Translations under genes and position numbers: made by a program
In this document: piece by piece, positions 42,962 to 63,164 of the stretch
How positions within the stretch are numbered: position 1 is the first letter of the stretch
How the letters are laid out: each line of letters begins with the position of its first letter
Origin: an uncultured bacterium
GTDB taxonomy: Bacteria; Actinomycetota; Acidimicrobiia; Spongiisociales; UBA5794
Direction: 5' to 3'
Length of the DNA stretch: 64,000 bases
Assembly: GCA_963801165.1 (NCBI GenBank)
Contig: CAWDDT010000005.1
Location: 224,001 to 288,000 of the forward strand
The notes under the pieces: model-generated
What the model saw: only the letters and a program-made list of their open reading frames with translations
Told to the model about the DNA's origin: nothing
Databases searched by the model: none

Positions 42962-43125
42962 CACCGCTCGTCCTTCCCCCCTCGTCCGGCCCAAGAGGGC
43001 CGCCCGATCCCCCCGAAATGGGGGGATCACTACTTGCTTCCAGCTCACAGCGCACCGCTCGTCCTTCCCCCCTCGTCCGGGCTACGCCCGGCCGATCCCC
43101 CCGAAATGGGGGGATAGCTACTTGC
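42962..43125. repeat. Two direct copies of a REP-like double-hairpin element
   Basis: CACCGCTCGTCCTTCCCCCCTCGTCCG-[hairpin]-CCGATCCCCCC-GAAAT-GGGGGGAT..CTACTTGC at 42962-43037 and 43053-43125. Confidence 0.88.
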
Positions 43126-54692: not shown

Positions 54693-55025
54693 TCACACTT
54701 CATTGACCGGCACGACCGGCGGCAGGTCGAGCGCCTCCGCCCGGTACGCCAGCGTGCGGACGAAGTCGTACATGTCCCGGCCTTCCTCTGTAGCCAGCGT
54801 GCCTTCGTAGTTGTTCCTCTGATAGCTCGTGAGACCACCGGGGCGGAACCGCGTTATGTGCAGGTCTCGCTCGCCGCGCAACTCGGCGATGACCTGTGTG
54901 AGCACATCGGACAGGCTCTCTATCGCGCTCGCCGGAAAGTCATCGGAGGGCGACATCGCGCCGAGCGCCTCGTGCAACGCCAGCGCCCACTCGATCAGCT
55001 CTGTATCGGGTGGGATGGGCTCCAT
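54693..55025 (-). CDS. Hypothetical 110-aa protein
   Basis: AGGAGGA SD. Its 3' end is duplicated in frame at 53590-53659. Confidence 0.7.
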   Translation of the reverse strand: MEPIPPDTELIEWALALHEALGAMSPSDDFPASAIESLSDVLTQVIAELRGERDLHITRFRPGGLTSYQRNNYEGTLATEEGRDMYDFVRTLAYRAEALDLPPVVPVNEV

Positions 55026-55075
55026 CGCTTTCCTCCTGGACGCGCCCGGCCAATCATATCGAGTGAACCGCCACA

Positions 55076-55108
55076 TTGCACCCATATGTATGGGCCATAT
55101 GATATGGT
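55076..55108 (+). promoter_or_regulatory. vapBC promoter with tandem palindromic operators
   Basis: TTGCAC-N16-TATGAT overlapped by CCCATAT/GTATGGG (55081-55094) and CCATAT-G-ATATGG (55095-55107). Confidence 0.7.
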
Positions 55109-55115
55109 TCACTGT

Positions 55116-55358
55116 ATGAAGACGACCGTTGAGATCACCGATGAACTCCTCAGAGCGGCAAAGCACACCGCCGCCTTCCGCGGCACGACACTCCGGGACC
55201 TGATCGAGCGTGGCCTCCGCCACGAGCTCGACGAGGAGCGCGGAGGTTCGTTCACCCTCGTCGATGCTTCCTTCACGGGGTCGGGCACCCAGCAAGGAGT
55301 CGCAGAAGGCGACTGGACGACCATCCGGGAGCTGATTTACGAGGGCCGCGGCGGATGA
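55116..55358 (+). CDS. vapB: VapB-type RHH antitoxin (DUF2191-like)
   Basis: MKTTVEITDELLRAAK...TLRDLIERGLR. ATGA coupling to vapC. Confidence 0.88.
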   Translation: MKTTVEITDELLRAAKHTAAFRGTTLRDLIERGLRHELDEERGGSFTLVDASFTGSGTQQGVAEGDWTTIRELIYEGRGG

Positions 55359-55786
55359 TCGCCGTCGACACCAACATCCTTGTGTACGCACACCGGGGTG
55401 ATTCGGCCTATCACCAGCCGGCGCAGGAGACGATCCGAGACCTTGCCGAGGGAAGAAGATCGTGGGCAATCTCATGGCCGTCTATCCACGAGTTCCTGGC
55501 GGTGGTCACTCACCCCCGTATCTACGATCCGCCTACGCCTGCCGACATGGCCGTCGCCCAGGTGGAGGCATGGCTCGACTCGCCATCACTCGTCGTGATC
55601 GCTGAGGGGAATGACCACTGGGATCAGTTGAAGCCGATGATGACCACGGGCGCCACCGGACCACGAGTCCACGACGCGAGGATCGCTGCTCTGTGCAACG
55701 GGGCGGGGGTAACCGAACTGTGGTCGGCGGACCGCGACTTCACCCGATTCCCGATAAGGACCCGGAACCCGTTGATCGCCGGGTAG
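55355..55786 (+). CDS. vapC: VapC PIN-domain toxin
   Basis: MIAVDTNILVYAH, HEFLAVVTHPR, VHDARIAA, SADRDF. Confidence 0.93.
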   Translation: MIAVDTNILVYAHRGDSAYHQPAQETIRDLAEGRRSWAISWPSIHEFLAVVTHPRIYDPPTPADMAVAQVEAWLDSPSLVVIAEGNDHWDQLKPMMTTGATGPRVHDARIAALCNGAGVTELWSADRDFTRFPIRTRNPLIAG

Positions 55787-55818: not shown

Positions 55819-56196
55819 TCAGGGCTGCTCGGCCACCGACTGGAACGCCCGGCGAACACGCTCAACAACCTGATCGATGCTCAGCCCTAGCTGGTGTCCC
55901 CTGATTGCGAGCGTCTCGACGGCGCGGTCCAGGTCGGTGTCGTTGTGCTCGCCGACGTGCGGCTCCGAGACGAAACTCCCGTGTCTCCCCCGGGTCTCCA
56001 GAACGCCATCGCGCTCCAATTCCTGATACGCACGCGCCACAGTGCCGGGAGCGATGCCAAGGTCTCGGGCGAGCTGACGTATCGTTGGTAGCCGGGTGCC
56101 CACATCGAGCACTCCTGACACGGCCATTGCGGTGATCTGGCTCCGGATCTGCTCGAAGGCGGGGATCGGCGAATCCGCGTCGATCCGGATGATCAT
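55819..56196 (-). CDS. GntR family regulator, YtrA subfamily
   Basis: SPIPAFEQI, RLPTIRQLARDLGIAPGTVARAYQELE, GSFV. Short C-terminus. Confidence 0.92.
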   Translation of the reverse strand: MIIRIDADSPIPAFEQIRSQITAMAVSGVLDVGTRLPTIRQLARDLGIAPGTVARAYQELERDGVLETRGRHGSFVSEPHVGEHNDTDLDRAVETLAIRGHQLGLSIDQVVERVRRAFQSVAEQP

Positions 56197-57068
56197 GCTT
56201 CCCTCGCCCTCGGCACGATCCACTTGGTGTTGAGGCGCGGAAAGCCAAGCAGCATCCCCAAGCCGCCGAATAGAAGCAGGATGCCGAGCACACCGAAGAC
56301 CCAGGCAATCGGACTGTTCGTGGTCCTCGCCAGATCCCACGCCATCGCGGCAACCAGCCACATCGGACCGCCGTATCCCAGCCCGGCGAGGCCCTGGATC
56401 GACGCGCTGCGCATAGCGTCGTCTGCTTGTAGGTCATCGAGGTCGTCGAAGCTCTGGCGACGGCGTACGACAAACTCCTGAGCGATCCGCGTCGCAGCAA
56501 TGATGGAGAGCGCCGCCAGCGCTAGGCCTACGTACCAGATTGTGTCGTGACGTGTGGGGACGTGCTCGCCGGGAAGCCGAATGGTCCCGAGGGGAAGGAT
56601 GCTTCCGGCGCCGGCCATCAGAAGAGCGAGACCGGCGAGGATACAGTTGTCGATCCGCGTGAAGCCCGGCAGGTACTGACGCAGCTCTCGCGGCTCCACC
56701 GTCACCGAACCGCCGCTGGCGTGAGGACGGGTGACCTCAGCGAGAATGATGCCTGCGGCAAACCCAATCAGCCACCAGTAGGTGCCGAGATCGTCCATGC
56801 GATACGCGCTGCGCGTCACCCACATCCACACAAACGGGACGTTCCATCCAGCCAGGAATCCGATGGTGCGGATCCACCGGGTCCGCCTGAGATAGGCAGC
56901 AACACGGGGTCGGGTCTGTGCGCCTTTCCGTAGCCCGTGTCCGATCATCCACGAGTCGAGTGCCTTCTGGCTCGGATAAAGCACCGCACGGAGAATCCCG
57001 ACAACGGTGACCCCGCCGAAGAACATGAAGCTCACGATCAAGCTGTTGGTGTCATATCCATCTATCAT
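56193..57068 (-). CDS. Membrane protein translationally coupled to the YtrA-type regulator
   Basis: Multiple TM helices, PRELRQYLP, DDAMRSAS. ATGA overlap with gntR. Confidence 0.75.
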   Translation of the reverse strand: MIDGYDTNSLIVSFMFFGGVTVVGILRAVLYPSQKALDSWMIGHGLRKGAQTRPRVAAYLRRTRWIRTIGFLAGWNVPFVWMWVTRSAYRMDDLGTYWWLIGFAAGIILAEVTRPHASGGSVTVEPRELRQYLPGFTRIDNCILAGLALLMAGAGSILPLGTIRLPGEHVPTRHDTIWYVGLALAALSIIAATRIAQEFVVRRRQSFDDLDDLQADDAMRSASIQGLAGLGYGGPMWLVAAMAWDLARTTNSPIAWVFGVLGILLLFGGLGMLLGFPRLNTKWIVPRAREA

Positions 57069-57074
57069 GTCACT

Positions 57075-57102
57075 ATTGTATCAATGTATCGATACAATGC
57101 AA
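57075..57102 (-). promoter_or_regulatory. Leaderless promoter with YtrA-type operator
   Basis: Minus strand TTGCAT-N16-TACAAT, 6 nt before ATG 57068. Palindrome ATTGTATC-N8-GATACAAT at 57075-57098. Confidence 0.78.
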
Positions 57103-57118
57103 CAGAAATTTGTCCACC

Positions 57119-57163
57119 TCTGGCGTTGATTCTGGCCGTCTATGTGCGCGTATCAACGCCAGA
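57119..57163. repeat. Solo palindromic element (copy A of the DUF559-flanking repeat)
   Basis: TCTGGCGTTGAT-N21-ATCAACGCCAGA, with the same arms as 62123-62170 and 63109-63156. Confidence 0.88.
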
Positions 57164-57172
57164 ACTGAGCGG

Positions 57173-58552
57173 CTACACGCCGTCCCAGCCAGCGAGACGG
57201 GCTGACAACCACCAGAACGCCATGCCTTTGCGGCGACAGTTGAACGGATGGCTGTGGGCGCAGCTCGAACCGAGGTCGGCGCAATCGTCGGGATGGGTCG
57301 AGCACCAGGTGCTGCACCATTCGCAGGCGTCGCTGGCGTCTGGGTAGAAGTTGCCCGCCGGGTCGTATTGCTCGATGTCGGCGAAATCGAACAGCACTCC
57401 CCCGGTGTCGAGCACATGCTGACGAACCTTGTCGTTGTTGGCATCGAGCGATGCGCTGCCGCCGTCGAGATGCCCGGTCATGTAGACGAAGGTCACATCC
57501 GGGTATTCCGTCTCCAGGGTCGTCATCGCTTCGAGGTAGGCATCGACATCGGTGTAGTCGCCCGACATCTCACCGCACCACGACCAGGCGAAGGCGTTCG
57601 CTTCGGGCACGTCGGCGAGAACCGACCGGGCCTCGCCCAGGTAGGCGGAGGCGTTCCAGGACCACCCGGAGTCGTAGCCCATGCGTAGCTCCGCGGGGGT
57701 CGTCTGAGGACCGATCTCTCGATACCACTTCTCGAACGACAGCCCCAGCCAGTTGTCGAGGTCCTCGGCGCCGGTCCAGATCTGGGTGCCGTGCGATGTC
57801 GACCCGTATGCCCAGATCACATCATCGGCGGCGGCCTCGAGCCATATCTCGGGGATGGCGTCGATATCGGCGGCATTGTGGTCCACAACGATCGCATCCG
57901 GGGTCTCCGGCGGCGGTGGCGTGATCGGGTCGAGGTCGAGAGCTCGGGCGAAGAACGACGCCATCTGGTCACGCTTGACCGGCGCGGTGGGACAGAACTG
58001 ATCGTTGGCAGGTGGGTTGCAACCTGCAGTGACACCGGCCCCGGCGAGTGCGTTGATACTTGCCTGGAAGATCGACGTGTCATCATCTGTGAAGTAGCCG
58101 GTGGATGTTGCCGGGTAACTGAAAGCTCGAGTGAGGAAAGCTGCCATCTGTTCCCGGGTCACCGAGGCGTCGGGGCAGAAGAGATCATTGTCGGGCGGGT
58201 TGCATCCCTTGGTGATCCCAGCAGCCGCAACCGCGTTGATGTCCGCTTCGAATACCAGGCCGTCGTCGTCTGTGAAGTAGTCGGTCGAGACTGGAGCCAG
58301 GTCGAGGGCCCGCTTGAGGAACGCAGCCATCTGGCCACGGGTGACGTTGCCGCTCGGGCAGTAGCGATCGTTGACCGGCGGATTACAGCCCCTGGTGATC
58401 CCAACGTCGGCGATTGCCTCGATGTTGGCCTCGTGGACGTTCCCGTTGTCATCGGTGAACGTGCCGCCGGGCGGTAGGGCGGCCACTGCCACTCCCGCAA
58501 CCATCATGCTGGCCAGCACCAGGACGAGTGGGCTCAAGATCCTCGTACGCAT
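57173..58552 (-). CDS. Secreted SLH-domain protein with uncharacterised C-terminal alpha/beta domain
   Basis: Signal peptide, three GxTxGCNPPxNDxxCP SLH repeats, then [32 protein letters not shown]. Confidence 0.85.
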
Positions 58553-61849: not shown

Positions 61850-62122
61850 AATGGTCTCCTCAGGTCGAGGCCCCAGCGGGGCGTCAGGCTGTTGCCGATA
61901 GAGGAGTGCCCGGTGGCGACGACAATCGCCGTGCCAGCCAGCTGCGCATGTGCTGAGCTGATGGGGTCTCGGCGGATTCGTGATCGCCGGACGTGATCCC
62001 GGGCCCCAGGAGAGGACGGCAGGAGTACGCCGCCTCCACATCGACCAGCACAAAGGCAATGGTCCAAAGTGCCGCGGCGACAGTGCGCACAACGGTGTTC
62101 ATCACGATCGCGAACCTAGCGC

Positions 62123-62170
62123 TTCTGGCGTTGATACGCGCGACGATCTCGGTCATTATCGACGCCAGAA
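62123..62170. repeat. Palindromic element copy B (left end)
   Basis: TTCTGGCGTTGAT-N22-ATCGACGCCAGAA. Confidence 0.9.
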
Positions 62171-62216
62171 CGGCAAGGGTATTCACTCTCTGTCGCCTCG
62201 ATGTCACTGTGGTGGA

Positions 62217-63164
62217 GTGTCGGGACGAGAAACATTGCTCAACGAGATTGCACGAGATCAACGAGGTATCTTCACCGTGGCGCAAGCGCGGGCTTGCGGG
62301 TTCGCTCGGCGTACCGTCGCTGCCAGGGCTGCTCACGGCCGGTACGAGCAAATACACCCCGGAGTGTACGGCCTCGCAGGATCGGAGGAGACCTGGCACC
62401 GGCAGGTTACTGCTGCGGTCCTGTCCGCAAAGGTGCCATCGGCGGCGTCACATCAGACAGCGGCCTTCCTGTGGGGCATGACCGACCGTTGCCCCGAGCA
62501 CATCGAGATTGTCACACGACGCCACGTGCGTTTGGCACGATCCGCATTCGTGGTCCACGAATCCAAGGACCTTGACGAAAGCGACATCCATCTCGTTGAC
62601 CGCATTCCCACAACATCTCCAGCACGAACTCTCGTTGACCTGGGCGCCTCCGCACGCCTGGGCGTGGTCGCCAGATGCTTCGACAGCGCGCTCCGTGCGA
62701 AGCTCGTGTCCGTTGCAGAGGTCGACCAGATGGTCCGACGGGTTGCCCGCAAGGGCCGCACAGGGGTTGGCACCATCCGCCCGCTCATCGAGGAGCGGCT
62801 CCGTTGGCAATCAATCACAGAGAGCAGCTTGGAGGATCGGTTCCGGGCACTGCTGGACGGTGCCGGCCTGCCGCTACCGACAAGCCAATACCAGCTCTTC
62901 GAAGCCGACGGCGATTTCGTGGGGCGGTACGACTTCGCCTACGAAGGGTGCGCGGCAATCATCGAGCTCGACAGCGAGCGCTTCCACATGGATCCCGGCT
63001 CATTCCAGCGGGACCGTGAGAAGCAAACCCGTGCCCAGATGCTCGGTTGGACCGTGTACCGCTTCACCTGGCAAGACCTCACCACCCGACCGGACATGGT
63101 CATCAGCGTTCTGGCGTCGATTCTGACCCGAAATGACGCTCGTATCAACGCCAGAAGCGGCTAG
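62217..63164 (+). CDS. AbiEi-like N-terminal domain with C-terminal DUF559 (Vsr-like) endonuclease domain
   Basis: ARDQRGIFT..QA..G...IHPGVY, SHQTAAFLWG, TSPARTLVDL, ESSLE, RYDFAY..IIELDS..FH..QRDREK...GWTVYRFTW. CACTGT 6 nt before the GTG. Confidence 0.88.
   Translation: MSGRETLLNEIARDQRGIFTVAQARACGFARRTVAARAAHGRYEQIHPGVYGLAGSEETWHRQVTAAVLSAKVPSAASHQTAAFLWGMTDRCPEHIEIVTRRHVRLARSAFVVHESKDLDESDIHLVDRIPTTSPARTLVDLGASARLGVVARCFDSALRAKLVSVAEVDQMVRRVARKGRTGVGTIRPLIEERLRWQSITESSLEDRFRALLDGAGLPLPTSQYQLFEADGDFVGRYDFAYEGCAAIIELDSERFHMDPGSFQRDREKQTRAQMLGWTVYRFTWQDLTTRPDMVISVLASILTRNDARINARSG
63109..63156. repeat. Palindromic element copy C (right end, inside the last codons of the DUF559 gene)
   Basis: TTCTGGCGTCGAT-N22-ATCAACGCCAGAA. 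Confidence 0.9.

Follow-up and report, generated by a model that had tools for sequence, protein, structure and literature searches.

A palindrome-flanked AbiEi-nuclease gene in an uncultured acidimicrobiial bacterium, a candidate member of a REP/RAYT-like cassette family with an unrelated enzyme

We analyzed a 64,000-nucleotide stretch of DNA from an uncultured bacterium of the class Acidimicrobiia (hereafter the window; positions 224,001 to 288,000 of contig CAWDDT010000005.1 in assembly GCA_963801165.1), concentrating on a gene for a 315-aa protein that lies between two copies of a palindrome near the right-hand end. The gene is an intact open reading frame (ORF) on the plus strand, running from a GTG start codon at 62217 to a TAG stop codon at 63164, and its product resembles an AbiEi-type DNA-binding protein joined to a nuclease of the Vsr/DUF559 kind. 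The left palindrome, L, is found upstream of the gene at 62120..62172 (core 62123-62170) and consists of 13-bp arms (TTCTGGCGTTGAT and ATCGACGCCAGAA) enclosing a semi-palindromic inner part of 22 nt, or possibly 21 nt. Between L and the start codon is a spacer of about 45 bp (62173..62216, plus strand) containing candidate expression signals. The right palindrome, R, occupies 63107..63159 (core 63109-63156), falls within the last ~18 codons of the gene, and ends 4 nt ahead of the stop codon of the neighboring HAD hydrolase gene. The tetranucleotide CTAG is present outside both ends, at 62116-62119 and 63161-63164, and the whole unit of gene plus palindromes measures about 1.05 kb.

A repeat search of the window recovered L and R as a 53-nt inverted repeat with 83% complementarity, and each of them as an internal hairpin whose 13-nt arms enclose a loop of 22 nt. 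By scripted comparison, the two loops match at 13 of 22 positions when aligned in inverted orientation and at 5 of 22 when aligned directly, and the lone off-pair arm position is mirrored (T/G in L, C/A in R), which makes R the reverse complement of L. In these respects the description given in a first-pass annotation of the window was accurate, as it was in stating that R supplies the last codons of the gene, that CTAG lies outside both ends, and that the usual toxin partner is not adjacent. No AbiEii/DUF1814 toxin gene adjoins the 315-aa gene, and Pfam searches of its neighbors in the window found no cytosine methyltransferase beside it. Both palindromes of that annotation are real, but it had missed a third, lone copy (copy A, at 57118-57164), oriented as R and located 9 nt past the stop codon of a 459-aa gene (57173..58552, minus strand), upstream of the next operon's AT-rich promoter region. 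Hairpin folding is better on the plus strand for L and on the minus strand for R. Each of the two also contains a sigma-70-like match of the form TTGATA-17-CAnnAT aimed into the gene, at 62131-62159 on the plus strand in L (TTGATA-17-CATTAT) and at 63148-63120 on the minus strand in R; two such matches were observed, against 0.2 expected in shuffled sequences. A promoter and terminator scan of the locus found no T-tract terminators.

Exact matches to the arm number five in the 4.55-Mb, 13-contig genome to which the window belongs (G000), all of them within L, R, or A, and the reversed control has 0 matches. With up to one mismatch allowed there were 21 matches, and the only paired sites were these same three. 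The confinement of the arm to L, R, and A, together with the empty control, indicates that the repeat is real, above chance, and not high-copy in G000, and thus not common enough to flank the gene by chance, a doubt that the first-pass annotation had itself raised. Metagenome contigs from four public runs, belonging to four studies, carry identical junctions, and one contig of 3109 nt covers both palindromes. One base, at 62142 in a CG stretch of L's inner part, is missing from the contigs of all four runs, so the L loop is possibly 21 nt and the window may hold a 1-nt assembly difference.

In the 315-aa protein an entire AbiEi-type DNA-binding module is joined to a nuclease domain of the Vsr/EDxHD type, with an AbiEi-like winged helix and C-domain at residues ~5-200 and a Vsr/DUF559 (EDxHD-type) domain at residues ~215-300. 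Pfam searches matched AbiEi_4 at 5.9e-11 and AbiEi_1 at threshold, with DUF559 and MTES_1575 below their curated cut-offs (18.1 versus 20.6 and 26.2 versus 38.2, respectively). The AbiEi models of PADLOC matched residues 6-176 at 1.1e-33, and a search of the protein against NCBIfam returned no family. A profile made from a 28-sequence alignment matched the DUF559 structure 3hrl (3.7e-4), the homing endonuclease I-Bth0305I (3r3p, 3.6e-3), and AbiEi (6y8q, 5.6e-3). In the same alignment R236, D238, E249, D251, and H256 are invariant, and by analogy with such nucleases D238, E249, D251, and H256 are putative catalytic residues. The AlphaFold model (predicted local distance difference test score [pLDDT], 90.3) was compared with known structures by Foldseek. 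Its first ~200 residues matched AbiEi (6y8q, 5.5e-7) and M. tuberculosis Rv2827c (1zel, 5e-4), and its C-terminal domain matched I-Bth0305I (3r3p, TMt 0.78) and Vsr (1cw0 and 1vsr, probability 1.00). A homodimer prediction scored 0.41 against a mark of 0.42 and is counted as evidence neither way. The family is large, with 9,961 clusters (50% identity) at E ≤ 1e-10; among the matches listed, most are full length at ~300-315 aa.

The layout of a gene between palindromes recurs at related loci. We collected 30 loci from 41 related genomes and 59 from public metagenome-assembled genomes (MAGs), nearly all labeled Acidimicrobiia or Actinomycetota. The public-MAG loci were found with a close 8-row alignment; a single-protein query gave no relative. 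After 1 locus without a match, 7 duplicates, and 20 loci with short flanks or partial matches were dropped, 61 were usable. A repeat shared by the upstream and downstream flanks (score ≥36) was present in 55 of the 61, compared with 26 of 721 cross-paired flanks, and a score above 35 was reached at 5 of 400 random positions in G000. One of the 61 loci (L013) comes from a genome marked as unpublished, and leaving it out gives 54 of 60. The flank palindrome is cassette-specific in sequence and 44-48 bp long, and some cassettes have two in tandem on each side. Its position is fixed as well. Relative to the aligned start, the median position of the proximal end of the upstream palindrome is -49.5 (interquartile range [IQR], -58 to -46), the palindrome occupying the -100..-50 interval; on the other side, the median distance from aligned residue 300 to the start of the downstream palindrome is +14.5 (IQR, 6.5-21.5). 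In 38 aligned cassettes, motifs resembling AAGGGGGTTC or AAGGG(G)TTC come right behind the upstream palindrome and a CAYRGT-like motif stands a few bases before the start codon; by eye, these could be the promoter signals of a leaderless mRNA. Two paralogues in G000 carry palindromes of other types, one on contig C11 being bracketed by its own, different 36-bp palindrome (GCGTAG type) and one on contig C9, with two frameshifts, having a third palindrome type upstream.

The palindromes belong to a superfamily with a conserved outer arm, TTCTKGCGT, followed by a subtype-specific stretch of 4-5 bp and a moderately AT-richer center. Both sides were of the TTCTKGCG type in 38 of the 61 cassettes. 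When the two palindromes of one cassette are compared, identity is 0.92 at arm positions 1-8 and 0.83 at positions 9-13; the corresponding values between different cassettes are 0.81 and 0.43. Positions 10-13 show 26 different majority tetranucleotides, and at least three of the four arms were identical there in 16 of 38 cassettes, compared with 26 of 5000 random sets. It follows that the half-sites of any one cassette, four in number, vary in concert. This concerted change would fit recognition by a co-evolving protein, or else frequent conversion among the copies; shared descent alone would not keep four half-sites alike. The central 6-7 nt of 66 cassette palindromes are 56% AT, compared with 41% elsewhere. 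Many copies in two congeners, G005 and G006, are perfect 44-bp palindromes with an AT-rich center, which indicates that the 22-nt loops of L and R are the degenerate inner halves of such palindromes. Near-identical copies of the inner sequence of copy A are present in G005.

The cassette also appears and disappears as a unit. The genomes of loci L095 and L075 have palindrome-gene-palindrome where G000 has palindrome-free intergenic spacers of ~50 bp (2 of 2 cases), and both flanks of the two empty sites align at 71-79% nucleotide identity. The two cassettes are inserted 1-10 nt from the neighbor's stop codon. Because the empty sites hold no palindrome, the palindromes in these two cases move together with the gene and do not represent a preexisting target. 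The closest homologue of the window's protein (71% identity, in G010) has other surroundings, and at the corresponding place G000 carries a PadR-like gene and a membrane-protein gene instead.

Lone palindromes outside the cassettes vary widely in number. A strict superfamily pattern matched 12 sites in G000 (2 with a reversed control), 28 in G005 (control, 1), 57 in G006 (control, 1), 2 in G002 (control, 2), and 3 in G010 (control, 0); among genus members, lone palindromes number about 0 to 57 copies. Set beside the superfamily counts in G005 and G006, the subtype of L, R, and A has three copies in G000, too few for a high-copy repetitive extragenic palindromic (REP) sequence there, and that candidate was rejected. 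Lone copies matching the two other cassette types of G000 number about 11 and at least 6, respectively. A loose pattern for the p11 type was unspecific (14 matches versus 35 with the reversed control), and 13 of the 14 were accepted solely for their exact 36-bp length and GCCGG-N4-CCGGC core. Lone copies in G000 are found close to stop codons, at distances up to about 10 nt, and the genes on either side of them are often convergent. At the site orthologous to copy A there is a palindrome in G000, one of a different subtype in G005, and none in G006, G002, or G004. A search for the Y1/HUH transposase class alone (PF01797), with a control that was positive in 6 of 14 known genomes, came back empty for all five genus members searched.

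Two further observations touch the lone copies. At C5:223824-223859 of G000, 142 bp ahead of the window, there is a lone 36-bp palindrome of the GCGTAG type, the type found on either side of the paralogous cassette of contig C11. The AT-rich promoter region beside copy A (57069-57110) contains a near-perfect palindrome of its own, TGTATCGATACA (about 57085-57096), and precedes a membrane-protein gene (56193..57068, minus strand) and a gene (55819..56361, minus strand) that, from its translation, we take to encode a GntR-like regulator. Judged from the letters, TGTATCGATACA looks like the operator of that regulator.

The pattern described above points to an undescribed REP-like selfish element without the usual transposase. 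We favor, with a probability of roughly 0.55, the explanation that the locus is a member of a self-contained cassette family, a functional analogue of REP elements and their REP-associated tyrosine transposases (RAYTs) that employs an unrelated enzyme. Each cassette consists, in order, of a palindrome of 44-48 bp, a stretch of about 45 bp with candidate expression signals, the AbiEi-Vsr/EDxHD gene, and a second copy of the palindrome. The winged helix may recognize the cassette's own palindromes, the upstream one, by analogy with AbiEi proteins, probably serving also as an autoregulatory operator. The nuclease domain would then nick or cut at or near the bound, and possibly extruded, palindromes, and repair of the break, or replication, would place copies of palindromes, and on rare occasions of the entire cassette, at new sites between genes. 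That the substrate is double-stranded or cruciform DNA is a guess. A broader claim, to which we would give somewhat less than even odds, is that Actinomycetota harbor a second class, of independent origin, of selfish elements of the "palindrome plus caretaker" kind, in which dispersed 44-48-bp palindromes are recognized, maintained, and spread by a winged-helix-Vsr-type nuclease acting on double strands or cruciforms and not by an HUH single-strand transposase.

Several observations weigh against a mobile cassette of this kind. In the wider phylum the family was present in 25 of 81 sampled genomes (a tally including three unpublished ones), and flanking repeats were found at 8 of 21 usable loci, unpublished genomes excluded; the other 13 had none, and the nuclease family can thus exist without palindromes. 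The question posed in the first-pass annotation, whether each homologue has its own flanking palindrome, accordingly has a positive answer at 55 of the 61 loci and at a minority of those sampled across the phylum; the palindrome-gene association is strong in our Acidimicrobiia-dominated lineage sample and is not universal for the protein family. The inverted arrangement of L and R is not general either. Among the 55 loci with a shared repeat, the direct score was higher in 36 and the inverted score in 18, with 1 tie, so the unit is not a classic element with terminal inverted repeats (TIRs); for near-perfect palindromes, orientation is simply undefined. Stem mismatches of the G:T and A:C kinds were in the ratio 17:12 upstream and 14:13 downstream, a lack of strand bias that offers no support for a strand-specific single-stranded hairpin intermediate. 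Subtype and resident cassette do not always agree. The cassette of G005 has GTCCAW-type arms, yet about ten GTTGAT-type lone copies are present there and no GTTGAT-type cassette was found in its 89%-complete assembly; G000 has two GTCCA-type lone copies without a resident cassette. Identity within a single palindrome is also inflated, pairing having been a selection criterion; upstream-versus-downstream identity is unaffected.

The history of the window's own copy is a further point on that side. In G005 the order HAD/cassette/small ORF/SecA is the same as in G000, with flanking proteins 60-75% identical, and the insertion must therefore predate the split of the two genomes and has not moved for a long time. 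The G005 cassette and the SecA gene there show frame changes that are inseparable from assembly errors. In the contigs of the four metagenome runs, from which rare variants drop out, the cassette was seen in place throughout and no excised joint was found, and no truly empty SecA-HAD site was found in relatives: the HAD gene is present in 9 of 14 congeners at E ≤ 1e-30, and SecA adjoins it in G005 only. On whether the gene is fixed and syntenic with no empty sites, which the first-pass annotation had named as telling against mobility, the outcome is thus divided, this cassette being syntenic in G005 and the cassettes of two relatives having clean empty sites in G000. The copy in the window is old and low in number, with three palindromes, and may be largely quiescent or domesticated.

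Contig C12 of the G000 MAG (6463 bp; loci L041 and L047) holds a second version of the SecA/small ORF/HAD region, at 85-86% protein identity (HAD, 85-86%; SecA, 85%). It has the SecA-HAD synteny without the cassette, and its spacer carries about 750 bp of unrelated tandem repeat. The contig may thus come from a second strain or a contaminant of the MAG, for which contamination is estimated at 5.6%. The repeat in the spacer belongs to a second dispersed family, built of double-hairpin units (CGGACGGCC..GGCCGTCCG, then TCCCCCC-GAAA-TGGGGGGA), which is found at 42969-43115 of the window and at C12:4362-4943 (L041, ~800-1440). The family gave 63 blastn high-scoring segment pairs in G000, and a tandem duplication of ~330 bp stands in the cassette's place on C12.

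The interpretation of CTAG as a target duplication, proposed in the first-pass annotation, did not survive comparison, and the lack of a visible target duplication is a further point against a mobile cassette. CTAG was present on both sides in 1 of 38 cassettes. The right-hand CTAG is the stop codon of the HAD gene and is also found on the cassette-free contig C12; the left-hand one is kept, as CTAG or CTAC, 14-15 nt before the ATG of the small ORF in both G005 and C12; and the HAD-side palindrome in G005 is 65 bp from the HAD stop codon with no CTAG beside it. No consistent target duplication was seen in the 38 cassettes, other words shared by their flanks appearing chance-like by eye. The proposal of a REPtron-like mobile system without a known transposase is left with the support of the genomic pattern, namely the layout, the gain and loss of the unit, the dispersal, and the absence of PF01797 from the five genomes, and without that of a CTAG duplication or a general inversion.

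It is also conceivable, although we regard it as unlikely, that the locus is an ordinary resident gene, an autoregulated single-chain AbiEi-nuclease acting for example in defense or repair, whose upstream palindrome is an operator and whose downstream palindrome is a terminator or roadblock, the lone copies being its regulon or further terminators. Proteins of the AbiEi family, Rv2827c included, repress their own promoters by binding inverted repeats (PMC7319586). The fixed placement of the upstream palindrome just before promoter-like motifs would suit such a role, as would the synteny in G005, the 13 of 21 phylum-wide homologues without repeats, and the closeness of lone copies to stop codons (about 10 nt or less), as expected of terminators. 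Autoregulation is in fact compatible with a mobile cassette and is included in the explanation we favor. A resident gene leaves unexplained, however, why the downstream copy should have the same cassette-specific sequence, why presence and absence should be unit-sized with palindrome-free empty sites, why copy numbers should swing from 2 to 57 among congeners, and why the copy A site should differ in subtype between G000 and G005 and be vacant in three other genomes; nor were T-tract terminators found.

Still less probable, in our view, is that the palindromes are autonomous elements, similar to REPs or to miniature inverted-repeat transposable elements (MITEs), that are moved by some other host enzyme, with AbiEi-DUF559 genes homing into them or being trapped between them. 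The excess of lone copies over cassettes, the subtypes without a resident cassette, the resemblance of the nuclease domain to the homing endonuclease 3r3p, and the commoner direct orientation, which is what duplication of a palindromic target would produce, could all be read in this way. Against it, the palindromes arrived with the gene at both of the empty sites examined, palindrome-gene distances are fixed on both sides and the subtype-specific arm bases follow the cassette, and the Y1/HUH class, the one transposase class screened, was absent from all five genomes. The idea that the flanking repeats arose by chance or as an assembly artefact is refuted. The 5.6% estimated contamination of the G000 MAG and the one base of L that differs from the contigs of the four runs might have spoken for it, but the junctions recur in four runs from four studies, with a single 3109-nt contig over both palindromes, the arm is unique to three sites genome-wide, and the layout is present at 55 of 61 loci.

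On one side of the cassette is the HAD hydrolase gene, whose stop codon overlaps the right-hand CTAG, and on the other are a conserved 72-aa membrane ORF (61884-62102, minus strand) and, directly downstream of it, a SecA-like gene; HAD and SecA were identified by Pfam. The 72-aa product has one hydrophobic helix and is also encoded in G005 and on contig C12, with 54-56% identity. Its ATG is 18 nt from L, which means that its promoter must overlap the cassette. Elsewhere in the window, two overlapping small ORFs on the plus strand (54858-55786) resemble an antitoxin and a PIN-domain (VapC-like) toxin, presumably a pair, with an N-terminal "AVDTNIL" motif.

Among known systems, the REP-RAYT combinations, in which RAYTs are associated with REP or REPIN elements and which are also called REPtrons, provide the closest genomic parallel. 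In such systems (see PMC3733652) one gene stands between copies of a palindromic repeat that is dispersed extragenically, RAYT lineages have their own repeat variants, and the gene is low-copy and often vertically inherited. The loci described here share the cognate palindromes on both flanks, the lineage-specific variants, and the low-copy, often vertically inherited gene; as for dispersal, the window's subtype has one lone copy in G000, and the superfamily has 28 and 57 strict-pattern copies in G005 and G006. They differ in having an AbiEi winged helix and a Vsr/PD-(D/E)xK-type nuclease in place of the HUH Y1 (IS200/IS605-like) transposase of RAYTs, in their longer palindromes (44-48 bp), mixed flank orientation, and lack of single-strand bias, and in their host, Actinomycetota (Acidimicrobiia).

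The protein's parts have relatives of their own. With the type IV AbiE systems (S. agalactiae AbiEi, 6y8q; Rv2827c, 1zel) it shares the fold and sequence family of its N-terminal two thirds and an inverted repeat just upstream of its own predicted promoter; AbiEi and Rv2827c bind such repeats in their promoters and repress them (PMC7319586). Here, in contrast, no AbiEii/DUF1814 gene is adjacent, a nuclease is fused at the C terminus, and the repeat occurs again at the 3' end and elsewhere in the genome. The C-terminal ~90 residues share fold and conserved acidic and His residues with Vsr, DUF559 (3hrl), and the EDxHD homing endonuclease I-Bth0305I (3r3p), which are grouped together in PMC3424549. 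Like a homing endonuclease gene, the cassette is a small, selfish-looking insertion, but it is intergenic and not within an intron or intein, its empty sites are plain ~50-bp spacers, and it has its own repeats at both ends. Insertion sequences (ISs) and MITEs with TIRs offer a similar size (~1.05 kb), repeats at both ends, and scattered gene-less derivatives. The cassette differs from them in having no known transposase family and no target duplication, in that each end is itself a palindrome, and in that the ends are inverted here and direct in most relatives.

We found no description of a palindrome-flanked AbiEi-DUF559 association in searches, mainly of titles and abstracts, of the DUF559, Vsr-like, RAYT/REPIN, and ycjD literature outside subscription journals. 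REP sequences and RAYTs, reportedly first described by Nunvar (2010) and by Bertels and Rainey (2011), are to our knowledge the only bacterial palindrome family described with a dedicated, flanked enzyme gene, and we know of no description of REP systems in Actinomycetota. The REP/RAYT case rests on single-strand HUH chemistry. The cassettes reported here display the same genomic logic with an unrelated protein, a toxin-antitoxin-type DNA-binding module joined to a Vsr-like nuclease, and since each carries an enzyme together with its presumed substrate, they constitute a directly testable system.

If the protein does act on its palindromes, a testable function would become available for a very large set of hypothetical AbiEi/DUF559 proteins, a source of intergenic repeats in GC-rich actinobacteria would be explained, and the family would represent a new group of sequence- or structure-specific nucleases with naturally diversified specificities. 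Should the "palindrome plus caretaker" reading prove true, it would amount to a new mechanism of DNA mobility and would give a function to much of the DUF559/AbiEi_4 protein set.

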